A stretch of 64,000 nt of DNA, from assembly GCA_964597575.1 (NCBI GenBank), contig CAZQXB010000001.1, positions 594,511 through 658,510 on the forward strand. The letters run 5' to 3'. Below, in pieces: positions 2,505 through 48,436 of this stretch. A program made the translations under genes and the position numbers. Position 1 is the first letter of the stretch. Every line of letters begins with the position of its first letter. This DNA is from an uncultured Gammaproteobacteria bacterium. Lineage in GTDB: Bacteria; Patescibacteriota; Patescibacteriia; Magasanikbacterales; UBA922. The notes beneath the pieces are model-generated. The model did not search any database and was not told where the DNA came from. It saw only the letters and a program-made list of their open reading frames with translations.

Positions 2505-5144
2505 ATGAATCCTCATAATTTCACCCAAAAGTCCCAGGAAGCGATTCAGAGAGCTTCAGATATTGCTCATGAACATGGCCAGCCCCAAGTGGAGCCTCCA
2601 CACCTTTTCGCCTCCCTTCTTCAAGAAGAGGAGGGCGTCGTGATTTCCGTACTTAAAAAAATGAATGCGAACATTCCTGAACTCCGAAATGCGGTGAGTA
2701 GCATGATTCAGGGGATGCCCCGAATCCCAGGCCCTATGCCGGGCGGTATCGGGCAGATTCTGATGGGTCAGGCCATGATGTATATTTTGGAGCGAGCCGG
2801 GGAAGAATCCAAAAAAATGGGCGATGAATACATTAGTGTTGAACATTTATTGTTGGCATTTTTAGGAAATAAAAACCCTATTAGCAGCGCTCTTGGAAAT
2901 CAGGGAGTTCATTACGACGACGTCTTAAAAACATTAGTGACGGTACGTGGAAATCAACGGGTTGATTCAGCAAACCCTGAAAGTAAATATCAGGCCCTTG
3001 AAAAATACGGTAAGAATTTTACCGAACTCGCTCGTCGAGAAAAGTTGGATCCTGTCATTGGTCGTGATGACGAAATTCGTCGAGTCATGCAGGTTCTCAC
3101 ACGTCGCACCAAAAATAACCCGGTACTTATTGGTGAGCCTGGAGTTGGGAAAACCGCCATTATTGAAGGCTTAGCACAGCGCATAGTAAAGGGCGATGTC
3201 CCTGAGAGTTTAAAAGAAAAAGAAGTGGTTGGGCTTGATATTGGTTCTCTCGTGGCCGGAACAAAATTTCGCGGTGAATTTGAGGAACGTTTTAAAGCAG
3301 TTTTAAAAGAAGTGATTGAATCCGATGGGCGTATTATTTTGTTTATTGATGAGCTCCACACCATTGTCGGAGCAGGTGCAAGTGAAGGTGCGGTCGATGC
3401 CAGTAACATGTTAAAGCCCGCACTCGCCCGTGGCGAACTTCATACGGTTGGGGCAACTACGCTTAAGGAATATCGTGAGCATATTGAAAAAGATGCAGCG
3501 TTTGAGCGTCGATTTCAACCGGTTCTCGTGACCGAGCCTACCCCTGAAGACGCGATTGCTATTTTGCGAGGAATCAAAGAAAAATATGAAGTCCATCATG
3601 GGGTCCGAATTACTGACTCTGCGATTGTGGCAGCGGTTGAATTATCAAGCCGCTATATTACCGACCGATTTTTACCCGACAAAGCGATTGATTTGATTGA
3701 CGAAGCTACCTCAGCCCTTCGTATGGAAATTGAATCAATGCCAGACGATTTAGATAAAATGAAACGAAAGATGATCAAAATCGAAATTGAAATGAGCGCC
3801 CTTAAAAAGGAAAAAGACGCTGATGCGAAAGAACGTTTGGGAAAACTGAAAGAAGAGATAGAAAATCTCCGCGAGAAAAGCAATGAGCTTGAAATGCACT
3901 GGAAAAATGAAAAAGAAATTATTGGAAAAATTCGTGAACATAAAAAAAGCATTGATAAGCTAAAGCAGGAAGCTGAAATTGAAGAACGAAACGGTAACTT
4001 ACAAAAAGTAGCCGAAATTCGCTACGGCAGTATTCCTATGATTGAAGAGGCTATTCGAGAAGATGAAAAGAAACTGACCGATATTCAAAAAGGACGTTCT
4101 ATTTTGAAAGAAGAAATTACTGAGGAAGATATTGCAGCCGTAGTTTCGCGCTGGACTAAAATTCCCGTTTCCAAAATGCTTCAGGATGAAATGCGCAAAC
4201 TCGTTACAATGGAAGATGAGCTTCGAAAGCGTGTCGTTGGTCAAGATGAGTCTATTCGCGCGGTAGCAAACGCGATTCGTCGTTCACGGGCTGGTATTTC
4301 TGAAAAGAAACGTCCAATCGGATCCTTTATCTTTCTTGGTCCAACCGGAGTTGGAAAAACGGAACTGGCTCGTGCACTCGCAGATTTTCTTTTTAATGAT
4401 GAGGAAGCTCTGGTTCGGGTGGATATGAGTGAGTTTATGGAAAAACATGCGGTCAGTCGCATGATCGGCTCCCCTCCTGGGTATGTGGGCTACGATGATG
4501 GAGGGCAGTTAACCGAAAAGATTCGTCGTCGTCCATTCTCGGTCGTGTTATTCGATGAAATCGAAAAAGCACATCCAGATATTTTCAATGTCATGCTTCA
4601 AATTCTCGATGATGGTCATGTAACTGATGCCAAAGGCCGTAAAGTCAATTTTAAGAATACCGTCATTATTATGACGAGTAACGTGGGGTCAGACATGATT
4701 ATGCGCTTAGGAAAGCGCGGAGAATTTGGCTTTGGTGATAATTCCGAAAAAACGACGAGTGAGAAAAAAGAAGACGCGATGAAAACGAAAGTCATGGAGG
4801 CTCTCCGTGATCAGTTTCGCCCAGAGTTTTTGAACCGCGTCGATGAAATTATCGTTTTTCATCCCCTCACAAAAGAGAATCTTCGTATCATTGTGGATCT
4901 TCAACTTCTTCAAATCGCAGAGCGACTTCGTGAAAGAAAGCTCACTCTTATTGTGACTGATGCAGCGAAGGATTGGCTCGGTGAAAAAGGATATGACGCA
5001 GAACTGGGAGCCCGCCCGATGAAACGGACGCTCCAAACTGAGGTTCTCGACCCTCTCGCGATACAAATCATGGCCGGAGAAGTGGTAGAGGGTGCGACTA
5101 TTACGGTTGATGTAAAAAATGATAAGATTACGTTCGTTGTTTAA
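2505..5144 (+). CDS. clpB: ATP-dependent chaperone ClpB (two AAA+ modules plus coiled-coil M domain)
   Basis: [16 protein letters not shown]-domain. D1 has Walker A GEPGVGKT and Walker [10 protein letters not shown] long coiled-coil middle domain follows. D2 has GPTGVGKTE and [11 protein letters not shown]. The track ORF starts at an upstream GTG (2427); the ATG at 2505 fits ClpB N-termini. Confidence 0.9.
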
Positions 5145-5199: not shown

Positions 5200-6108
5200 T
5201 TATTTTAGGTGACCAGCTCGGGTCGTTTCTAATTCCTGAATTTCTTTGGTAAAGGCAGCAACACGATTGATAACTGGAACTTTAATAGGAAACTTCTCAA
5301 GTTCAGCATCAACGTTGTATTTTCCGATATCTGCATCAAGAAGCGTCTGGCGAATCGTCGCCTCATCGGTATTAAACTTTTCTTTTACGAGCTCAAGTAC
5401 TTCTGGATACTTTGCAATCTCTTCATTCCGAAGTTCACGCAATTCTGACACTGATTGCTGAAGTCCGCCAGCTAAATTCCCCTTCTCCTGGGCCGTGGCA
5501 ACGCGTTTTACTAACTTTCCATTCGTTACCTCGGAAACTTCCCCTTGATTTACCTCAACTATTTCGTCTCCTTTTGTTACCGCCACAACCCCTTCTCCGG
5601 TCATAATTTTTCCACCAGGGTGCATTTCAAAAGCGGTACCTTTCACCGTTGCGGTAAAGGTACCGTCGGTAACAACGTAGCTTCCGTTTGTATGTACACC
5701 ACTAACTTCGTGCCATGTACGACCACTCTCCAATCGGAGACGAATCGCATCTTCTTTGAGAGATTCAATGACCACTTTCGTGTTCATATCAAGAAGCACA
5801 ACCGAGCTTTCAAACATCTGAAGTGAGGCATTCCCGCCCATTTTGGTTTCAACCGTATCCCCTTCTTTCACAGCGGTAACTCCATCAACTAAAGTTCCAT
5901 TCACATAGACCTCAACCCCTAAATTGCGCGGCTCAACTTCCGCTGTGCGAATTGGCGCTGAAAAAAGCATACGGTACGCCACTACCCCGGCAACGGCAAG
6001 AGCGGCGATGATAAGCAGAACAACCGTAAGAACAATATACTTGGTCTTTGATCGTTTCGGCTCAGTGCTACCCATCTGAGTTGTCTGTACTGTTGCTGAA
6101 TTTTCCAT
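5200..6108 (-). CDS. Membrane-anchored protein with FecR-like beta domain
   Basis: 302 aa with an N-terminal TM helix (YIVLTVVLLIIAALAVAGVVAY). Its beta-rich central region resembles FecR-domain proteins (GTAFEMHPGG...GEGVVAV). Confidence 0.5.
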   Translation of the reverse strand: MENSATVQTTQMGSTEPKRSKTKYIVLTVVLLIIAALAVAGVVAYRMLFSAPIRTAEVEPRNLGVEVYVNGTLVDGVTAVKEGDTVETKMGGNASLQMFESSVVLLDMNTKVVIESLKEDAIRLRLESGRTWHEVSGVHTNGSYVVTDGTFTATVKGTAFEMHPGGKIMTGEGVVAVTKGDEIVEVNQGEVSEVTNGKLVKRVATAQEKGNLAGGLQQSVSELRELRNEEIAKYPEVLELVKEKFNTDEATIRQTLLDADIGKYNVDAELEKFPIKVPVINRVAAFTKEIQELETTRAGHLK

Positions 6109-11463: not shown

Positions 11464-14400
11464 TTAAATACCGGTGTACGGAACAGAAGCCGAATATGCG
11501 GAACACGAATTTGTGGCTTGGTTGTAGGCGCAAAGACGAAGATAAATGGTACCGGTGGGAAAATTAAGCTCACCGCGATTAATGTAGACTTCGTTGTTTC
11601 CAGCAGCGCGCGCATAGGCTATTACACCTGACCCATACAGAGTAGGGTTGTTTTGCAGAGAGAAGAGAACTCGAAATTCTTGGTTTCCTGTCCAGTATGC
11701 GTATGCAGATGAGTTGAGAACTGTTAACGCATAGCTGTCCCCACTGCTTACCGGAGGGGTTGTTGGATTGGGTGCTGGCGAAGGGCTTGGAGTTGGTCCT
11801 GGTGTAGGAGATGGTGGGGGTGGCGGAATGGGTGCTGGAGAGCCTCCGCGACCAACCCACGAACCTCCGAATTCACAGCCTGTCCACCAGCACGGTGTAC
11901 CAAGAGCAAAATTTTCAAGAGCCGTAAATTTCGGAGCTTCGCTGTGTGATTGATTTTGCGAAAGGAGTGCTCCGAAATTTCCGTACCGAGTTTGAGGGGT
12001 GACGTCAACGAAATGAACAAATGTTTTTCCACCACGCTCTCTCCAGCCATTCAGGTATTGGGTGTAGAGGGCTCCCATTCGTGGATCGTTGTTTGCATCT
12101 CGAAAAAGAGCTTCGACCGTTGCATTATTTTCGTTTGCTCCATACGCAATAAGATGCTGCCCACCTTCGTATGCAATGAGATCGATTCCTGGGTACGATT
12201 GTCGAAGAAATGTATTATCATCGCTCATTTCCTGAAAGGCCTGAGGTAAATCTATCGACTGCAATTGATCGAAGATTTGATTGAGTGTCATGCTTTGTGT
12301 GGCCGATGAACCACTTAGTCTGTTTCCAAAGTATGGTGCTGTGGCAACCGCATCAATATTCTGATACGCGTTTCTCCAGGAGAGCAGGTTGCCTGTTCTC
12401 CAGGTGTTTCCCGTAAACGAGCCCATCACTCGCACTACGCGACCGTTTACACCAAATACGTCACGGAAAATTTGTCCAACTTGAACCGATCGTTCACTAA
12501 ATTGCCGCATTTCACCCATACCACAAGCTTGGATGTACCGGAGTGGCCACGGATGACCCTCACAATAGACACCGTTTCCTGGGTTTGCATCCTGATCACA
12601 CTCCGCTTGAAGATCAGGATTATTCTGACACCCTCGTGCCGCTAAAATTTGCTGCTGGAGGATGTATGGGTACGCACCATTCCACGATTCGTTCGAATAC
12701 TCAACAAAGATGCGACTGTTTGAGTTAATGGCACCGCGAATACGGGAAGCAATATCCCGCACAAGGGCGTCCGATGCATTTACCGGAATGTTAATCCACA
12801 AATCAGCCTGAAGGGTATTTGAGAACTCAGCAAGAATTTCTGGTGGGGTCCGAACCCAGTGAGCATCAGTGACGCGTGTAAGGTCACTCACGTTTACCAC
12901 ATTTTCAATACCTGCTTCATTTATCCCCCATTCTTGCATAAAACGCACAACGCTTGTTGAGCGATTATTACGAAGGTATGTCGGGTGAAACAGTTGTGGG
13001 TTTGGGGTGTCCGCAAAAATACGGCACGTATTTGATCCTCCGCACTGGCTGTTTGTTGTGCAGTACTGTGTTTGATCATTTGAGCACGATCCGCCTGGAG
13101 GGTATACGCGAATGTTTCTAATATAGTTATTTGGGTTCGTTGAACTAATTTCTAGCATGACAGTCGTTTCAAAGGCGGAGCGAGTTACATCGATCACATC
13201 ACGCCCTGGCCTCGACAAATCAGCATTTCGTGTACCTCCGGAATATACTATGACCCCTTCACCGTCATAGAGAACGGTATATCTACCTGTCGGATAAAAA
13301 GTTGAAGGGTTTGTTGAGCCTGCAACATTCGTTACGAGTGCGGTACGGATAATATTTGTTCCCGGAACATTATTTGGAACAGATCGTACCCATCCGTTAC
13401 TATCAAGATTGACTGCCGGACCACAGTTCCAGCATGCCTCGACAGTTCCGTTTCCTATAATACCAGAAGCCCATGGTCGTGATGATTTAAACAAATCTAC
13501 AAAAACCCAGTTCGCCCCGAAGTCAATAAGGGAATGAGTATTTGTTCCGATCGCGGATCGATAATTCGCCAAACTTCCAGATGGTGGAGGGCTCACTGGT
13601 GCTGGTGGAGGTACTGGAGCTGGAGGTGGCGGAGGTGTCGTTGGAGGAGTAGCAGGGGGTGCTGGTGGAGCAACAGGAGGTGTCGCCGGTGGGGGTGGTG
13701 GCGGTGTTCCGGGTGGAGCTGGAGGTGGCGGAGGTGTCGTTGGAGGAGTAGCAGGGGGTGCTGGTGGAGCAACAGGAGGTGTCGCCGGTGGGGTCGTTCC
13801 CCCTGCTGCGTTTACGGTAATTGAGGTCGGTCCTGAAGTCGTCTCTTGGCCGGAATTATCCCGAGCCCGGACAGATAGCGAGTGAGCTCCACGCGTTGGA
13901 TTCACCCAATTAAATACAAACGGCGAAATGGTGTCACGACGCAAAAGATTGGTGCCATCAAAAAACTCGACGTACGATATAGACCCGTTTGCATCGCTGG
14001 CTGTCGCCTCAAGCCGAACTGTTGTCGGTAGTGTAAAAACAGAATTTGCAATAGGGCTTGTAAGTGAAACTCTCGGTGCACCAGGGGTGGGTAACGGAAC
14101 AGGGGCGGGCGGAGGAAGAGGGACCGTCGATCCTGGAGATGGTGCGGGTGGAGTTGGAGGGGTAATCGGGCGAGAACTTGTTGCGTCCGCAAATACCCGT
14201 GCCAACGGAATTGTCGCTACATGATCAAGGCGAAATTGGTAAACGTTAGTCACCTCCTCGGCCGAGGTAATATACCGCTTTGCTAAAGATGAAGCAGTTT
14301 GACCGCTCGTAGAAACGGATTCTAAAGCGTACACTTTGGGATCGTTTTGATATTTAAAAAGAAGATTTGATGGGAGCGTATCAACCGTTGTAATGGCGGG

Positions 14401-14883
14401 CAACACCGTATATTTTTGAAGCACGACCGGGGTAACATCCTCAATTTGATCAAAAGAAAAGCCTAAAACATTCAGAAATGTATTTTCAGATTCAATAGGA
14501 TGTATTGAAGAGTTACCAAGAACTATGTAGACCTTTGGGTCTGTCACGGTTTTAAGTAAGGATCCGTTTGGATATACTCTTCGATGACCCCAAGGAAGAA
14601 AGGATAACTCGTGATTAGGTATGCGAGCGAGTGTTTGAGCATTTGTTATCCGAACGTCACTCCATGATGCAAAATGAGAAAAATAAACCTGCGAACTTTT
14701 AATTGGGCGTTTTTTACAGTCTTCTGAGATGTAATAGACTGCTGGGTTGTTAGGAATTTTATATGGTTGCAAAATGGTCAGCGGGCAATTTGTTGAGGTT
14801 TGGGATATTGCCGGGGCAACAAATACCACTCCGAGAGATGCAAATAGGGCCAAACCCAAAGAGAGAAGATGAGAACGACGCAT
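11464..14883 (-). CDS. Large secreted multidomain protein: signal peptide, Ig-like domain, Pro/Thr-rich linkers, putative clan GH-A glycoside-hydrolase-like core, C-terminal beta domain
   Basis: The ATG at 14883 gives MRRSHLLSLGLALFASLGVVFVAPAISQ, a signal peptide. PTPPAP linkers flank an Ig-like segment (SVRARDNSGQETTSGPTSITV). The core carries VEYSNESWNG (resembling the GH-A acid/base xExxNEx motif) and LIAYEGGQH (a nucleophile-like motif). The final PT-rich linker is followed by a beta-rich tail. Confidence 0.75.
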   Translation of the reverse strand: MRRSHLLSLGLALFASLGVVFVAPAISQTSTNCPLTILQPYKIPNNPAVYYISEDCKKRPIKSSQVYFSHFASWSDVRITNAQTLARIPNHELSFLPWGHRRVYPNGSLLKTVTDPKVYIVLGNSSIHPIESENTFLNVLGFSFDQIEDVTPVVLQKYTVLPAITTVDTLPSNLLFKYQNDPKVYALESVSTSGQTASSLAKRYITSAEEVTNVYQFRLDHVATIPLARVFADATSSRPITPPTPPAPSPGSTVPLPPPAPVPLPTPGAPRVSLTSPIANSVFTLPTTVRLEATASDANGSISYVEFFDGTNLLRRDTISPFVFNWVNPTRGAHSLSVRARDNSGQETTSGPTSITVNAAGGTTPPATPPVAPPAPPATPPTTPPPPPAPPGTPPPPPPATPPVAPPAPPATPPTTPPPPPAPVPPPAPVSPPPSGSLANYRSAIGTNTHSLIDFGANWVFVDLFKSSRPWASGIIGNGTVEACWNCGPAVNLDSNGWVRSVPNNVPGTNIIRTALVTNVAGSTNPSTFYPTGRYTVLYDGEGVIVYSGGTRNADLSRPGRDVIDVTRSAFETTVMLEISSTNPNNYIRNIRVYPPGGSCSNDQTQYCTTNSQCGGSNTCRIFADTPNPQLFHPTYLRNNRSTSVVRFMQEWGINEAGIENVVNVSDLTRVTDAHWVRTPPEILAEFSNTLQADLWINIPVNASDALVRDIASRIRGAINSNSRIFVEYSNESWNGAYPYILQQQILAARGCQNNPDLQAECDQDANPGNGVYCEGHPWPLRYIQACGMGEMRQFSERSVQVGQIFRDVFGVNGRVVRVMGSFTGNTWRTGNLLSWRNAYQNIDAVATAPYFGNRLSGSSATQSMTLNQIFDQLQSIDLPQAFQEMSDDNTFLRQSYPGIDLIAYEGGQHLIAYGANENNATVEALFRDANNDPRMGALYTQYLNGWRERGGKTFVHFVDVTPQTRYGNFGALLSQNQSHSEAPKFTALENFALGTPCWWTGCEFGGSWVGRGGSPAPIPPPPPSPTPGPTPSPSPAPNPTTPPVSSGDSYALTVLNSSAYAYWTGNQEFRVLFSLQNNPTLYGSGVIAYARAAGNNEVYINRGELNFPTGTIYLRLCAYNQATNSCSAYSASVPYTGI
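13619..13792. repeat. Tandem direct repeat, 2 x 99 bp, encoding a duplicated 33-aa Pro-rich linker
   Basis: gctggaggtggcggaggtgtcgttggaggagtagcagggggtgctggtggagcaacaggaggtgtcgccggtgg occurs at 13619 and again at 13718. The protein repeat is ATPPVAPPAPPATPPTTPPPPPAP x2. Confidence 0.8.
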
Positions 14884-14967
14884 AGACAAAAAAAGATAAT
14901 GCCCCTATGACAAAGGGTACCAAATTAAAGAACTATTCGCAATTTTTTATCCTCTTTGTCGCCTTCT

Positions 14968-22130: not shown

Positions 22131-22159
22131 TTGACAAATTACCTAAATTATGCTATATT
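22131..22159 (+). promoter_or_regulatory. Sigma70-like promoter TTGACA-17-TATATT for the GC-rich island gene
   Basis: TTGACA at 22131-22136 and TATATT at 22154-22159, followed by the strong SD aaggag at 22207-22212, 9 nt before the ATG at 22222. Confidence 0.5.
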
Positions 22160-22221
22160 TTGCACGCTCTCTTTAGCATGTTCCCATCGTGGCACGCTAT
22201 AGGAGTAAGGAGTTAAGGACA

Positions 22222-22818
22222 ATGAGAAAAGCAACAAAGGGCGCGAGGGTCCTGTGGATCGGAATGCTGGTCACCCTCGGGGCCCTCTGCCTCGCAGGGC
22301 CCGGCTGTGGCGGGACGGAGGAGAGCTCGCTTGAGGAGGAGCACTCCGAACTGTTCGGCAGCCCAACGCCGCAGCAGCGGTGCTTGCCGAGCTACTGCAC
22401 ATCACTCAACAAGGAGGTGCCGTTCCCACGGGTCATGTTGTGGTATCATGAATCCGATCCCCGGGGAGGTCAGCCCTGGCTGGGGACGCCGCAGGGTCAG
22501 TGCGTGGATGGTAGTGGTGGATCATTCGGCATCTACTACACTCCACAAGACCTCGCTGATGAATTTTCGCGGCATAGACACCAGTTCATTCAGCAGCCAA
22601 CCACACCGGGAAAACTGACCAGATTCACCAACAACTCCACTTACGGAATCACCGTAGTCTATATTCAGGGTGACTTCGACAACAGCGTCAGGCCGCTTAA
22701 CTACATAGGGCCAGGGCAGCAGCGAGCGCTGCCTACTCCAAGTGGCACAGATCGGTTCAAGGTCTATATCAATGGCGCCGGCACTTCGCTCGTGAACATC
22801 GCCGACGTGTGCAATTAG
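22222..22818 (+). CDS. Secreted Cys-containing protein of unknown function encoded on a GC-rich island
   Basis: MRKATKGARVLWIGMLVTLGALCLAGPGCGG is a signal or lipoprotein-like peptide. The ~170-aa mature part has 5 Cys and no family match. Codon usage is GC3-rich, unlike its neighbours, and it carries a strong SD, which is absent from host genes. Confidence 0.6.
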   Translation: MRKATKGARVLWIGMLVTLGALCLAGPGCGGTEESSLEEEHSELFGSPTPQQRCLPSYCTSLNKEVPFPRVMLWYHESDPRGGQPWLGTPQGQCVDGSGGSFGIYYTPQDLADEFSRHRHQFIQQPTTPGKLTRFTNNSTYGITVVYIQGDFDNSVRPLNYIGPGQQRALPTPSGTDRFKVYINGAGTSLVNIADVCN

Positions 22819-26678: not shown

Positions 26679-29478
<2,800 letters not shown>

Positions 29479-29525
29479 ACGGACAGAAGTATACCATATC
29501 TCCTCCTACCGAAGAAAAATATTCT

Positions 29526-29581
29526 GTAAAATAAAGAGAGACCGGACCGAGCGAAGGATGTTACTCCTCCGCTCGGCCGGT
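29526..29581 (-). terminator. Strong GC-rich rho-independent terminator inside the GC-rich insert, just upstream of the pilD start
   Basis: An 11-bp stem with one bulge (ccggaccgagcg / cgctcggccgg), followed on the minus strand by TCTCTCTTTATTTTAC. Confidence 0.6.
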
Positions 29582-29707
29582 CCCGTGGGCGATCATCCTC
29601 GACCTGAGCCTCCGCTCACGGTCATGTCACTCGACGTTGCCCACGTGGGAACGACAGTGGCGAGGAATGAACCCCACTCGATCAGACAGGCCGGCGCCGG
29701 GCGCGGG

Positions 29708-29803
29708 TCAGCTGATCACGATGGTGCCGGCGCGGTTGCTCTCGAGCTTGCAGTGCTTGTAGTAACAGGTGTTCTGCACCTCGGTCGGGTCGTGGTTGCG
29801 CAT
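29708..29803 (-). CDS. 31-codon ORF with strong SD in a GC-rich insert (MRNHDPTEVQNTCYYKHCKLESNRAGTIVIS)
   Basis: Manual translation. The SD aaggaga lies 4 nt upstream of the ATG, and GC is about 60% against a ~40% background. There is no family assignment, so this could equally be a non-coding structured element. Confidence 0.3.
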   Translation of the reverse strand: MRNHDPTEVQNTCYYKHCKLESNRAGTIVIS

Positions 29804-29869
29804 CGGTTCTCCTTGGTGTCCTTGGCGAAGGCGTCTCCTGCACTGGGCAGTACAGACGCGGTTGATAAA

Positions 29870-29908
29870 AAAAGAATAAAATAAATCACCCTCTTTGTCA
29901 AGAGGGTG
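29870..29908 (-). terminator. Rho-independent terminator for the DUF368 gene (caccctctt-tgtc-aagagggtg, then U-tract)
   Basis: A 9-bp perfect stem. On the minus strand it is followed by ATTTATTTTATTCTTTTT. Confidence 0.6.
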
Positions 29909-29947
29909 AGAGGGATATTTTCCTAAATATGCCTTATTTTAGCCAAA

Positions 29948-30802
29948 TTATTGTTTTTTCGAAACCCAACGGTGAATAGCAAACACAAGAGCCATACCTA
30001 AAAATACCAGCATAACTCCAAACACTGTTTCACGGGTAAACTCTAGTCCAGTCTGCTTCCAAGGCCAAATTTTCCGAATAGAGCCAAGCATAAGTCCTAA
30101 AAGGACCGCAATGGTCACATCATGATACTTCCTCAAAAGCCATGCTACCACCCGCACAAACAGGAGAATTCCAACCACCATTCCCACCCCAAACGGAATG
30201 AGTACCCCCCAATTCCACAGGGCCACTGCCTCAACCATAGGGTAATACTGACCGAGAATATGAAGAGTAAACGCTCCAGATAAACCTGGCAATAAGCCCG
30301 CCACAACCGCCACAGCCCCGCTTAAAAAAAGCACCGGGGTTGTTTGGGGAAACTGCTGTGGAATAATATCAACCATAAACCAGCCCGCAACAAAACCAAT
30401 CAAGGTGAGGATCCAGGTAGCGGCTGTTTTTTTCTTGATTTCAGTATGAACGAAATATGCAGAGGCAAGCATGAGTCCGAACAAAAGTGCATCTGTATAT
30501 AATGGGAATGCCACCTTAAGTGCATCCACGGCTCGAGCTGATAGAACGACGGCCACCGCAACGCCGCTCGTAAGCACCACCAAAAAATGCCAAGGAATAT
30601 ACGCAGCAAGCTCTTTCCACTTTCCCCGTAAAAATAACCCGAGTGCTTGCCAATTAAATCGAGCAAGCGCCACTAAAATATCCTGATACAACCCTACAAT
30701 AATTGCCATGGTTCCCCCAGATACCCCAGCAACGATATCAACCGCCCCAATCACTAACCCTTTCACAAATAACCTTCCTCGAGAATCGGTATTCTGTAAC
30801 AT
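29948..30802 (-). CDS. DUF368-family membrane protein (putative polyprenyl-phosphate translocase, PopT-like)
   Basis: 284 aa, polytopic, with GVSGGTMAIIVGLY and a repeated half (GLSGAFTLHILG) typical of DUF368. Confidence 0.75.
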   Translation of the reverse strand: MLQNTDSRGRLFVKGLVIGAVDIVAGVSGGTMAIIVGLYQDILVALARFNWQALGLFLRGKWKELAAYIPWHFLVVLTSGVAVAVVLSARAVDALKVAFPLYTDALLFGLMLASAYFVHTEIKKKTAATWILTLIGFVAGWFMVDIIPQQFPQTTPVLFLSGAVAVVAGLLPGLSGAFTLHILGQYYPMVEAVALWNWGVLIPFGVGMVVGILLFVRVVAWLLRKYHDVTIAVLLGLMLGSIRKIWPWKQTGLEFTRETVFGVMLVFLGMALVFAIHRWVSKKQ

Positions 30803-41917: not shown

Positions 41918-44434
41918 CTAAGCAGCTATGGCGATTGGTGTCTGCGGTACAGAGTGTTGAAGAATACTCCTCACATTTCCTTCAATCACCTCTTCCAATT
42001 CACTTGGATTATACCCACGAACGCGACCGAGAAGAGACTCTACTTGACCCCGAGTTCTCGCCGTAATTTCTTTTTTAAATTCTTCGCCAATTTTTTCTTT
42101 CCCTTGTGGCACCATCTCTGGTTTCAAAGTAGCGCCGTCGGTTTGTTTTGCAACATCGCGTACATATGTTCTTTCTTCAAAGCCTTTTTGGTCGGGCGTT
42201 TCTTTTCTCTCTAGCCCAATTTTTTCAGTAGTTTCAAACTTCAACGACACCCCTTCACTTGTGGTTTTTTCAGGAACCGTATGATTCGTGTCTAATTGGT
42301 CTATGTTTTTTTCGGCAACCACAACCTCTTTTACAACAGTTTCTTGTCTTAAAGATACAGAAGGTGAAAACAGCACCGCAGGTTCCGAGGTGGCGGTTCT
42401 TTCCTTATCCGTATTATTCACGATTTCTACTATGCCCACATCTTCCAAAGAAGGCGTTTCAGAAAATTCGACCATCTTTGTAACAGGAATAACTTGAGCT
42501 TTTTCCACAATATCCTTTTCAGTTGCTTCAACTACTTGAGCTACAAACACCTCTTCCATCACGAACACTCCTTCAGAATTATTTTCATAATCCTGAACTT
42601 GGCCAGACTCTTTCTCCACTATTGCTATACCAGATACATCGTCAACAATGGGCAGGTAAGTTTCTTTTCCCACTCCTAGCACCCCAGAAAGAGTAGTGGG
42701 AAGGGAAACAGGAGCCACACTCTCAATATCGGTATCAGTAATTGCCTGCTCCACGAGCCCAATACCAGTTTCCTGCCATACCGCTTGCGCAGTTTCAGCA
42801 AAAGTTTCTTCCTCCGCTACTAAATTTTCTTTTCTCTCAGATACTGTCGTTTCTGTAACAGAAAAAGGGGTAGATTCGATAGAAGCTGAAGAGTTATCTA
42901 CCTCAACCATCGGGAAAACTTCCGTGTCAAAAATAAGTGTTATCGCTTCTGGGGTAGGAGTTGCAGTATTACTTTCTCTCTTAAAATCCGTGACGCGCTC
43001 ATCCCTCTCTACAACTTCCGTATCTCCCTTTTCATGGAAAGAAAAAGTCTCTTCAAAAGAAGTGTCGGCAACCACAATAGACTCTGGGGCAAAATTTTCT
43101 CTTTCGCCCACTGTCATTTTTTTAATATGAAGAGAATTTTCACCTTCTTCAGAACTTGATGCACTTTTTTCTATGTCATCTCTCAGAATAGGGGCCACAT
43201 CTACATAGTGAGAAAAAGAAGACATCTCTGACTCTCCTACCAGACCACGCGAAACATCATATGTTTCTAACTCAATACCAGAAGAGACTTTTATCTCTTT
43301 TGTTTGGAAAGAGGGATCTTCCGGAGTTTGAACTTCTAAAAAAACAGGAACACCTTCTGAAATCTCAAAAGATTGACCTTCCTTTTCAAGGGTAATGCCG
43401 AGCAGCTCCCCCTCTGTTTCATAAACATGCTGAATAACTTCACTGCGTGGGGCATGAACTTGCCGTGCAACATCTCCTAATTCTAGAATCTGAGGAATGA
43501 GTTCATGATTCTCCTCTACAGAAGCCGCCTCGTCTACACCTTCTTGTTCTAATGAAGGGGTGGTAAAAATTTCTTTAGGTAACATTATCGGCGACACCTC
43601 ACCTAAAAAAGGTTGCTCAAATTTTTCAGTTTCAAAAACATGAGATTCTTCAGGCGCAGCAAACATCCGATCAAACCAGGAGTTCTGTTCCTCCGTAGTC
43701 TCTAGATTACCATTCTCGGGTAAGGACAGTTCCACACCCGTGGCGATTACGCCAGATACATCATGGTGCTCTAAAGATTCCTGCCAGATAGGGGTTAAGT
43801 TAAGTTCAATGCCCTGCGTACTTAAATCAACCACCGTTCCATCACCCTCTTCATCAAGCTCGCCATCATTCGCTACCCTCTCCGCAGACACAGGGACATC
43901 ACGAGTAAATCCATACATTGCAATCTTACCATCAGCAGTCACCCACATTTTTGATATATGCCACACCTCTTTATCACCTTTTTGTTCGACATGCTTTCCA
44001 ATATGCTCTGATCTCGGACCCTCCTGAAGGGCCCCCCGCATTCGTTCGTGGTACGCAATCTCCTCGGCTGTACCGGTCTCATGCACACCCTTGGTAACAT
44101 CGTGCTGTGTTCTTGGTACGAATAAATGCCCGGTAGTTGCATCAAACTCCATTTGTCCCACATTGTCAGAAAATTCTACACTCCACTCAGACATCTCCCC
44201 ACCAAACATCGTTCGAATTTCCTCTAAAGCAGATTCCTGAGTGGGAGGAGTATACTCCTCAGAGACGCTAGCTGGCTCTCGTTCATTCTGCAAAGCCAGC
44301 TCTCCAGAATCAGGGGATGCTGGAGGAAGCTCAACTGAATTTGGCGCGCGAAAAGGACTACCCTCACTAGAATTGGGAAATTGATCTTCTTCAGGCTCTT
44401 TTTCAATTCTCTGTTGTCCGTGGAGTTCTCGCAT
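41918..44434 (-). CDS. 838-aa hyper-acidic, low-complexity (E/D/S/T/V-rich) protein with a short globular N-terminal region
   Basis: Acidic residues dominate throughout. There is no TM or signal peptide. Residues ~90-180 (FDATTGHLFVPRTQHD...WHISKMWVTADGKIAMYGF) look globular. It is first in the operon. Confidence 0.6.
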   Translation of the reverse strand: MRELHGQQRIEKEPEEDQFPNSSEGSPFRAPNSVELPPASPDSGELALQNEREPASVSEEYTPPTQESALEEIRTMFGGEMSEWSVEFSDNVGQMEFDATTGHLFVPRTQHDVTKGVHETGTAEEIAYHERMRGALQEGPRSEHIGKHVEQKGDKEVWHISKMWVTADGKIAMYGFTRDVPVSAERVANDGELDEEGDGTVVDLSTQGIELNLTPIWQESLEHHDVSGVIATGVELSLPENGNLETTEEQNSWFDRMFAAPEESHVFETEKFEQPFLGEVSPIMLPKEIFTTPSLEQEGVDEAASVEENHELIPQILELGDVARQVHAPRSEVIQHVYETEGELLGITLEKEGQSFEISEGVPVFLEVQTPEDPSFQTKEIKVSSGIELETYDVSRGLVGESEMSSFSHYVDVAPILRDDIEKSASSSEEGENSLHIKKMTVGERENFAPESIVVADTSFEETFSFHEKGDTEVVERDERVTDFKRESNTATPTPEAITLIFDTEVFPMVEVDNSSASIESTPFSVTETTVSERKENLVAEEETFAETAQAVWQETGIGLVEQAITDTDIESVAPVSLPTTLSGVLGVGKETYLPIVDDVSGIAIVEKESGQVQDYENNSEGVFVMEEVFVAQVVEATEKDIVEKAQVIPVTKMVEFSETPSLEDVGIVEIVNNTDKERTATSEPAVLFSPSVSLRQETVVKEVVVAEKNIDQLDTNHTVPEKTTSEGVSLKFETTEKIGLERKETPDQKGFEERTYVRDVAKQTDGATLKPEMVPQGKEKIGEEFKKEITARTRGQVESLLGRVRGYNPSELEEVIEGNVRSILQHSVPQTPIAIAA

Positions 44435-44705
44435 AATTAAAAACGCACCTCTCCCGAGGTGGTCAAAAAATATACTGAGATAGATATTTCCTGCTCGGGA
44501 TGTCTACACTATTTGGCGATCTGACTCCTTTAGGCTGCCCTAAAGATTACAGTTGCGGCACAGTACCGGAATTTCACCGGACTTCCCCAAATAGCTGCTC
44601 AATTGTGTGTCCATTGTATCTCGCGCATCGAGCGGTGTCAAACGTCCAAATATCACAAAAAAATATTCACTACTGCGTACACTAAAATGGTTATCCACAC
44701 CGTAT

Positions 44706-48043: not shown

Positions 48044-48072
48044 TTGACAGGAGTCTCAAAAAATGCTACTAT
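48044..48072 (+). promoter_or_regulatory. Sigma70-like promoter TTGACA-17-TACTAT for the GC-rich 94-aa gene
   Basis: The hexamers are at 48044-48049 and 48067-48072. The ATG at 48087 is about 8 nt past the predicted start site. Confidence 0.45.
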
Positions 48073-48086
48073 TTCTGCTCAAGAAA

Positions 48087-48371
48087 ATGCCAACACAATC
48101 ACGGTTTAGCACCATCAGAGGTGCCCCATACACACCGCGCCCAGGAGATCGGATTCTCTGGGACAAAAGAAACCATGTCATCACAGTTCGTCCGGAAGGC
48201 TCGTCAGCTGCGGTTCTCGTGGACGGGAAGATGACTGTTTCGACCAAGGGAATTACCGGAACCGCAGCCATGAAGCTTATCGAGGAGCTTGCAAAGGCGA
48301 GCGGCAACGGCGTGCGGTTCGCACAGGAGGAGTACCTTACCGAAATCTACGAACTGCGCTCAAGCCCCTGA
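48087..48371 (+). CDS. 94-aa protein of unknown function on a GC-rich island
   Basis: MPTQSRFSTIRGAPYTPRPGDRILWDKRNHVITVRPEGSSAAVLVDGKMTV.... GC is about 56-58% against the AT-rich background, and there is no family match. Confidence 0.5.
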   Translation: MPTQSRFSTIRGAPYTPRPGDRILWDKRNHVITVRPEGSSAAVLVDGKMTVSTKGITGTAAMKLIEELAKASGNGVRFAQEEYLTEIYELRSSP

Positions 48372-48379
48372 ACGCTCTC

Positions 48380-48415
48380 CCTCAGGCCCGACCCTCGATT
48401 GGTCGGCGCCTGAGG
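48380..48415. terminator. GC-rich ~14-bp hairpin (cctcaggcccgacc...ggtcggcgcctgagg) without U-tract; possible terminator or 3' stabiliser
   Basis: Read from the sequence, between the convergent island gene and the NUDIX gene. Confidence 0.35.
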
Positions 48416-48436
48416 ACCCTATACCAAGCCAATATT

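Follow-up and report, generated by a model that had tools for sequence, protein, structure and literature searches.

The 64,000-nt stretch of contig CAZQXB010000001.1 analyzed here (hereafter the window) contains, between the gene for a DUF368 protein and pilD, a GC-rich island that is probably a lineage-specific, independently transcribed small-protein gene, inherited vertically in a small clade of small-genome bacteria of ~45% GC. The island holds, on the minus strand, an open reading frame (ORF) of 31 codons plus a TGA stop (MRNHDPTEVQNTCYYKHCKLESNRAGTIVIS; 29708–29803), part of whose predicted peptide reads MRNHDPTEVQNTCYYKHCK. A first-pass annotation of the DNA letters had left open whether it encodes a small protein, a leader peptide or a modified-peptide precursor, or represents a structured RNA from a high-GC donor. 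The small protein is the best supported of these: ORF, Shine-Dalgarno (SD) sequence and start codon are kept in five loci and, as is typical of bacterial small-protein genes, the putative SD and start stand in frame across the orthologues, with a predicted promoter and terminator belonging to the unit itself. The kind of gene is thus a known one, to which an unannotated family is added. Its unusual trait is a wobble position more constrained than the positions that change the amino acid, with a clade-wide GC content of ~95% at third codon positions (GC3) in genomes of ~45% GC.

A GC-rich island at a conserved genomic site

The island (29539–29866) has a GC content of 63–68%, as opposed to 44% for the window (mean 0.44, standard deviation 0.059 in 150-nt windows). 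Its maximum over 150 nt is 0.68, and 100-nt windows across 29550–29849 range from 0.60 to 0.66 between AT-rich flanks of 0.34–0.41. Both scans agree with the ~350-bp GC-rich patch that the first-pass annotation had described between the two genes. Its concern that the patch might be an assembly chimera proved unfounded: a stretch of 12,855 bp that includes the locus recurs at 100% identity in a Logan assembly of SRR13355620 (it is reported in 3 samples), and orthologous islands are present in independent assemblies from other samples. The NCBI contig that holds the window is 913,817 bp long.

A full HMMER scan of 1.84 billion protein representatives, a homology search of the kind the first-pass annotation had called for, returned a single match, the 32-amino-acid MRNHDPTEKQNISYYKHFCDFEDNRADNIVIS (P0001; 74% identity, E = 1.2e-5). 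The source of P0001 is L003, a JGI contig of 944 bp, on which its gene immediately follows one for a DUF368 protein with 93% identity to the window's. DUF368 homologues at 56–59% identity led to three more loci, namely L086, L087 (with an identical copy, L090, from another sample) and L089. In L086, L087 and L089, the order MscL-Bcp-DUF368-PilD-LigA-GatC-GatA is kept, with a spacer of 500–630 bp between DUF368 and PilD. Each spacer holds one SD-led ORF on the DUF368 strand, comprising 104 codons in L086, 55 in L087 and 38 in L089, next to the 32 in L003. Homologous inserts at the same site in relatives, which the annotation had proposed to look for, therefore exist in L003, L086, L087/L090 and L089, with strand and promoter unchanged. 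All five ORFs stop with TGA, the rarest stop among the window genes (7 of 55), and a 27-mer, GGCGCCGGCCTGTCTGATCGAGTGGGG, is conserved. Twice, two clade members with different versions of the small gene were found in one sample (L089 and L090 in SRR29476910; L003 and L086 in JGI 3300045502).

A further DUF368 locus, 45% identical, stands in a different neighborhood without this arrangement. In a collection of 185,579 species genomes, all DUF368 relatives were at most 42% identical and no close relative of the lineage was present. Taken together, these two results confine the unit to a small, poorly sampled clade. A profile built from the five small proteins recovered nothing beyond three of its own members.

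Third codon positions are locked to G or C

In the window ORF, GC content at the first, second and third codon positions is 0.44, 0.38–0.41 and 0.94, respectively. Of its 31 sense codons, 30 end in G or C (hypergeometric P ~1e-6 for 30 of 32 G/C at one codon phase), and the G/C periodicity coincides with the ORF boundaries. GC3 lies between 0.32 and 0.49 in 53 of the 55 window genes, two other GC-rich ORFs reaching 0.59 and 0.69, and the G/C-ending codons of the peptide are minority codons in these 55 genes. The same bias recurs in all five ORFs (GC3 of 0.92–0.98; 0.98 in L086, 0.95 in L087, 0.92 in L089), at unremarkable values of 0.41–0.54 for the first and second positions of the spacer ORFs and in loci of 45–47% GC. 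In the pooled counts of the five ORFs, codon choice is uniform for AAC (32/32), AAG (12/12), GAG (10/10), CAG (15/15), CAC (11/11), ATC (13/13) and TAC (8/8) and strongly skewed for GGC (24/29); U makes up 6–15% of the ORF RNA. When a looser filter was applied to 81 unrelated loci (several hundred kb), it retained three marginal ORFs of 25–28 codons, all without an SD.

The best reading of these data is that wobble positions are held at G or C by selection. Within the shared motif MRxTNGP, codons of L087 and L089 differ synonymously by C/G swaps only (CGC/CGG, ACC/ACG, CCG/CCC), which indicates that G/C-ness is preserved and not the identity of the nucleotide.

Comparison of the window with L003, the closest pair, revealed an equally unusual substitution pattern. 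The DUF368 genes differ by 61 synonymous changes, with proportions of differences per synonymous (pS) and nonsynonymous site (pN) of 0.489 and 0.038, respectively. The small ORFs show 0 synonymous and 11 nonsynonymous differences (pS of 0 over 16.8 sites, pN of 0.144). The 11 substitutions fall 4, 6 and 1 times on the first, second and third codon positions and are accompanied by one in-frame codon insertion. At the DUF368 rate, ~8 synonymous changes would be expected, and the probability of seeing none is 1.3e-5. No other frame on either strand displayed a purifying pattern. An overlapping, +1-shifted frame of 53 codons is open because G or C at its first position excludes stop codons. Opposite the island, the Logan gene caller placed an ORF of 108 codons (29558–29884, plus strand), whose G/C-rich phase at codon position 1 marks it as a shadow of the real ORF. 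The small gene itself is overlooked by gene callers, or such a shadow ORF is called opposite to it, an example of how small genes with a high GC3 come to be mis-annotated.

Predicted architecture of the transcription unit

On the upstream side, the unit borders on the terminator hairpin of the DUF368 gene (TCACCCTCTTGACAAAGAGGGTGA; 29886–29909, minus strand, as for all elements of the unit; 10 bp, −16.2 kcal/mol, followed by a T-run). Embedded in this hairpin is the −35 box of the small gene's putative promoter, an overlap that is kept in L003, L086, L087 and L089. The sigma-70-type promoter (29873–29901; 10 of 12 matches) consists of TTGACA (29896–29901), a 17-nt spacer and TATTCT (29873–29878). 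The arrangement TTGACA-17 nt-TAnnnT, with its exact 17-nt spacer, was found in all five loci (with TGGACA in L003), the −10 boxes being TATAGT, TATGAT, TACATT and TATATT in L003, L086, L087 and L089. We infer a transcription start near A29866.

The deduced 5′ untranslated region (UTR) would form a stem-loop (GCGUCUGUACUGCCCAGUGCAGGAGACGC; 29831–29859; −12.2 kcal/mol), followed by a CA-rich single-stranded stretch and the SD sequence AAGGAGA (29808–29814), 4 nt before the ATG. A GGAG-type SD lies 4–7 nt before the start in all five orthologues. A few nucleotides past the stop codon, a small GC hairpin may form (GCGCCCGGCGC; 29694–29704; weak at −3.8 kcal/mol), adjoining the palindrome ccggcgccgg; all orthologues have a CGGCGC-type motif after the TGA. 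The remainder of the 3′ UTR is occupied by a long hairpin (29585–29682; −44.6 kcal/mol) that holds the second palindrome, cccgtgggc/gcccacgtggg, and by an intrinsic terminator (29523–29584) with a 19–20-bp hairpin (29539–29584; −37.6 kcal/mol) and the U-rich tail CUCUUUAUUUUAC; the sequence right after the terminator hairpin is CTCTTTATTTTAC. This distal terminator does not satisfy the T-run rule of a simple terminator scan and was consequently missed by it, hence our fold-based call. The four complete loci (window, L086, L087 and L089) all end in a strong terminator, those of L086, L087 and L089 having U tails and stabilities of −24 to −34 kcal/mol, and the 5′ UTR stem-loop and GC-rich 3′ UTR are likewise common to the orthologous loci. 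In its layout, then, the unit is as the first-pass annotation had drawn it, with an SD-led 31-codon ORF, the DUF368 terminator and a strong rho-independent terminator as borders, GC palindromes after the stop and a structured GC-rich tail.

Based on these elements, a monocistronic mRNA of ~340 nt (~29866 to 29525, minus strand) would start from the strong sigma-70-type promoter that overlaps the DUF368 terminator, and would be composed of a 5′ stem-loop, a canonical SD, the 31-codon ORF, a ~100-nt GC-rich 3′ hairpin and a 20-bp terminator. Translation would yield a small hydrophilic, probably unstructured peptide whose sequence and length evolve fast. We conjecture that G/C-locked wobble, a low U content of the ORF, the 5′ stem-loop and the very stable 3′ hairpins might jointly protect the message from nucleases and let it be decoded efficiently, so that expression is high or persistent. 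Stabilized mRNAs are known from the 5′ stem-loop of ompA and from the 3′ 'retroregulator' terminators of Bacillus thuringiensis cry genes. The predicted transcript resembles these in that a strongly signaled ORF stands between a hairpin close to the 5′ end and, on the 3′ side, a very stable hairpin with a terminator, but differs in that its 5′ hairpin is not predicted at the very 5′ end and in that a U-poor ORF with G/C wobble is not known there. Should mRNA stability or decoding be the cause of the codon pattern, the family would constitute a natural experiment in synonymous-site selection.

Indications of conserved structure in the noncoding parts of the predicted transcript

The 5′ UTRs of window and L003 are 94% identical, with two dinucleotide differences that both fall into predicted loops, and the base strands of the 3′ hairpin are ~97% identical. 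The ~55-nt apex of that hairpin is ~50% substituted, still forms a hairpin and includes 2 compensatory pairs out of 38; this pattern is suggestive of structural constraint, as judged from two sequences only. In L086, L087 and L089, a two-part stem-loop occupies the equivalent place in the 5′ UTR, supported by 4 compensatory pairs among the three. Automatic alignment failed to produce a structure common to the 5′ UTRs of all five loci and recovered one for L086, L087 and L089 only; the UTRs of the deeper orthologues share an architecture and are alignable only at short motifs.

These observations bear on the possibility that the RNA is the main functional product, i.e. a regulatory or dual-function RNA like SgrS/SgrT, RNAIII/hld or SR1/SR1P whose ORF is also translated. 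Its conserved UTR segments would then target other molecules, and constraint on the nucleotides themselves would account for the frozen wobble. In its favor, the 94% and ~97% identities of the 5′ UTR and the 3′ hairpin base contrast with 49% difference at neutral sites nearby, synonymous change in the ORF is zero, the hairpin apex varies and nevertheless stays a hairpin, the 5′ stem-loop architecture occurs in all orthologues, and the island as a whole folds better than its shuffles (z = −3.0). The ORF part, however, is no more structured than dinucleotide shuffles (z of 0 to +1), so pairing does not explain the G/C wobble pattern, and a period-3 pattern sustained over 31–104 codons is not attributable to RNA pairing. 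Moreover, SD, start and frame are kept and indels are in frame, the UTRs are not alignable among deep orthologues, and neither a match in Rfam nor an enrichment of GGA motifs was found. A function residing chiefly in the RNA therefore strikes us as rather unlikely. Compared with SgrS/SgrT, RNAIII/delta-hemolysin and SR1/SR1P, the unit shares a short transcript, a small ORF and structured segments more conserved than the peptide; it is set apart by the missing Rfam match, UTR sequences unconserved in deeper orthologues and a base-pairing target that is hypothetical.

The known structured RNA envisaged by the first-pass annotation was not recovered. At the gathering threshold, Rfam 15 reported only an AdoCbl-II riboswitch elsewhere in the window; a search of 29400–30000 at E-values up to 10 gave sub-threshold noise, and the orthologous loci gave nothing relevant. 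ARAGORN detected neither a tRNA nor a transfer-messenger RNA. A sponge for CsrA was considered and rejected, given the lack of GGA enrichment.

Points weighing against a conventional protein-coding function

Several aspects of the data weigh against the island being a small-protein gene of the ordinary type. A pN/pS ratio above 1 with a pS of 0 is the reverse of what purifying selection normally leaves in a protein, so that the amino-acid sequence may be less important than the RNA or its translation. Likewise, the 5′ UTR and the base of the 3′ hairpin (94–97%) are more conserved between window and L003 than the ORF is, which points to constraints at the RNA level. Amino-acid similarity to the deep orthologues consists of short, low-complexity motifs only, and the comparison covers only five loci, effectively four independent lineages. 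Both transcription and translation of the small gene are predictions made from sequence. The stable-mRNA rationale for the high GC3 is conjectural, and the predicted 5′ hairpin lies at least ~8 nt from the predicted 5′ end. Finally, the clade's ancestor may possibly have acquired the gene horizontally long ago, which is to be distinguished from an insert in the present genome.

Selection may thus not be acting to keep the amino-acid sequence, given wobble positions frozen at G/C across the clade and a peptide that drifts in sequence and length. This would suit a unit that works through its RNA or through being translated, be it as a nuclease-proof, U-poor mRNA with a second role as a regulator by way of its conserved UTR helices or as a ribosome-based decoding sensor for Asn, Gln or NAC codons before the gatCA operon. 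We regard this as a minority possibility, well short of an even chance. If true, a kind of small translated RNA not described before would have come to light in an uncultivated lineage with small genomes.

Relationship to the downstream operon

GatCAB makes Asn-tRNA and Gln-tRNA. An Asn/Gln-rich leader peptide could thus sense tRNA charging and control read-through into pilD-ligA-gatC-gatA, and the location is suggestive, as ORF and terminator lie directly upstream of the gatC/gatA operon in every locus. Asn and Gln account for 13–23% of the small peptides as compared to ~7% of window proteins (12.3% vs. 3.7% for Asn alone), and in window and L003 a basal helix can compete with the 5′ arm of the terminator if the 3′ arm is left out. 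When pairing of the terminator 5′ arm with upstream sequence was evaluated in the four complete loci, though, it was no better than in shuffles (P = 0.43–0.82). The distance from stop codon to terminator amounts to 125–270 nt and the ORF varies from 31 to 104 codons; the Asn and Gln codons are dispersed without a tandem run, and G/C wobble at all other codons would go unexplained.

A further objection comes from pilD itself, which is preceded by a predicted extended −10 promoter outside the unit (TGGTATACT; 29488–29496, minus strand), 9 nt before its ATG (29476–29478) and without an SD. The sequence TGnTATACT...CGTATGAT is invariant in four loci, 9–10 nt before the ATG and again with no SD (window 29476–29496, minus strand; L086 ~5735–5758; L087 ~5000–5023; L089 ~4095–4118). 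Because of this invariant element so close to the start codon and the absence of an SD, the pilD mRNA is probably transcribed independently and leaderless. The leader-peptide proposal of the first-pass annotation accordingly lacks support on two counts, pilD having its own predicted extended −10 and no antiterminator outperforming shuffles in the four complete loci, and we deem attenuation very unlikely. Like the attenuators trpL, hisL and tnaC, the unit precedes an operon and consists of a short SD-led ORF with GC-rich hairpins and an intrinsic terminator behind it; unlike them, it has no antiterminator and no run of regulatory codons, is separated from the operon by a promoter, and has a long and variable distance between stop and terminator.

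An old resident rather than a recent insert

The island might alternatively be foreign DNA from a high-GC donor, either recently inserted or a non-functional remnant. Its GC content (0.63–0.68 vs. 0.44) and GC3 (0.94 vs. ~0.40) do resemble high-GC, actinobacterial-type codon usage, and the window harbors other GC-rich genes. Yet the same site, promoter and strand are used in all related loci, with DUF368 identities of 93% and down to 56–59%, making the island at least as old as that clade. Synonymous sites in the neighboring gene are heavily substituted, near saturation even in the closest pair (pS of 0.49), and GC3 has remained at or above 0.92 everywhere, so the composition has not decayed. 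Nor did we find donor-like DNA or protein in plasmids, phages, the 185,579 species genomes, JGI metagenome contigs or the 1.84 billion protein representatives, blastn against plasmids and phages giving nothing usable. The first-pass idea of an insert from a high-GC donor is at odds with all of this and appears highly improbable to us.

A mobile element or cassette was also rejected: there are no terminal inverted repeats, no mobility genes and no convincing target duplications, only AT-rich 8-mers. A diversity-generating retroelement was rejected since no second copy exists in the 64-kb window (word size 7) and the differences from L003 are not specific to adenines; no reverse transcriptase is encoded among the flanking genes, the search having been confined to the window and not extended to the rest of the genome. 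Read-through of the TGA stop, for instance as selenocysteine, was discarded as well, the in-frame continuation proceeding in different frames in window and L003.

With horizontally acquired islets, the island has in common a sharply atypical composition and codon usage and abrupt boundaries. It departs from them in being orthologous and syntenic in all relatives, in lacking mobility signatures and a donor, and in a composition that has not been ameliorated. A sharp anomaly in GC content and codon usage can hence be old, vertically inherited and selectively maintained, which calls for caution with composition-based assignments of horizontal transfer.

Properties of the predicted peptides

The orthologous peptides comprise 31–104 amino acids, are rich in Asn, Gly and Thr, and share the motifs MRxTNGP, KQNI and DNRxDNI. 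Their grand average of hydropathy (GRAVY) ranges from −0.6 to −1.5 (−0.84 for the window peptide) without any hydrophobic stretch; the transmembrane segment of a type I toxin or membrane micropeptide was thus not found in any of them. AlphaFold2 gave no confident fold, with a mean predicted local distance difference test (pLDDT) score of 48 for the 104-amino-acid orthologue and 53 for the window peptide (4-sequence alignment). This outcome is consistent with, but uninformative as to, the peptide being disordered, as it probably is.

The window peptide contains a C-x4-C loop, CYYKHC, and relative to L003 its ends are conserved and its middle is variable. Superficially, this looks like a leader plus variable core, and one could imagine a ribosomally synthesized and post-translationally modified peptide (RiPP) or disulfide-looped precursor whose Tyr-Tyr-Lys-His core is modified by an enzyme. 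The Cys residues, however, are changed in the closest homologue (C13S; H-C to H-F-C) and both absent in the deeper orthologues, the neighbors MscL, Bcp, DUF368, PilD, LigA and GatCA are housekeeping genes, with no maturase, protease or exporter in any locus, and no precursor model of NCBIfam or Pfam matches. For want of modifying enzymes nearby, of a family match and of conserved Cys residues, the RiPP-like precursor suggested by the first-pass annotation is scarcely credible and, to our minds, the least plausible of the explanations considered.

Searches of Pfam, NCBIfam (E-values up to 10), PHROGs, PADLOC and PDB profiles assigned the peptide to no family, one PHROG at E = 0.05 being discounted. 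An exact-peptide look-up and a word-indexed protein search with the padded peptide were empty, scans of viral contigs were empty or yielded chance matches, and a literature search on the phenomenon brought up nothing relevant. A degenerate DNA pattern for MRNHDPTE matched two JGI metagenome contigs (L004/L005), where only those 8 residues are shared, within a longer high-GC ORF; these hits were dismissed as chance, and a longer degenerate pattern found nothing in the genome collection.

As a small-protein gene, the unit compares well with those of other bacteria in being monocistronic, in having a promoter of its own as well as a strong SD and a terminator, and in specifying a product of fewer than 110 amino acids that is hydrophilic, of low complexity and without a predicted fold. 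It differs by having no sequence relation to a described family, by a codon usage opposite to that of its host and kept across orthologues, and by more nonsynonymous than synonymous change. The minor small acid-soluble spore proteins of Bacillus, examples of small hydrophilic stress or spore proteins encoded by short ORFs, may offer a comparison.

Neighboring genes and other GC-rich features of the window

All neighbors of the small gene lie on the minus strand. They are a LigA-domain ORF (26679–28748), PilD (28705–29478) and a DUF368/VCA0040-like polyprenyl-phosphate transporter (29948–30802), beyond which follow a peroxiredoxin/AhpC-TSA match (here called Bcp), MscL and cation P-type ATPase domains.

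A second GC-rich gene (22133–22818, plus strand) comprises a 209-codon ORF (22189–22818) with a GC3 of 0.69 and a lipoprotein-like N-terminus (…LGALCLAGPGCGG…). A promoter-like TTGACA-17-TATATT lies ahead of it, and neither Pfam nor NCBIfam has a family match. At 48063–48430 (plus strand), a 102-codon ORF with a GC3 of 0.59, likewise without a family match, is followed by a GC-rich hairpin (~48385–48420). One other GC peak (0.69) is due to a ~100-nt GC-rich direct repeat (13530–13913) inside a 1141-codon ORF (11464–14889, minus strand). The segment 62505–62955 (GC content of 0.59–0.65) lacks a convincing ORF, showing overlapping ORFs on both strands and a flat GC content by codon position, and has no match in Rfam; an RNA gene of an undescribed kind or a degraded gene might lie there. 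The AdoCbl-II (cobalamin) riboswitch aptamer detected in the window is located at 44506–44605 (minus strand; 42 bits against a gathering threshold of 36.5), upstream of an 838-codon ORF (41918–44434, minus strand).

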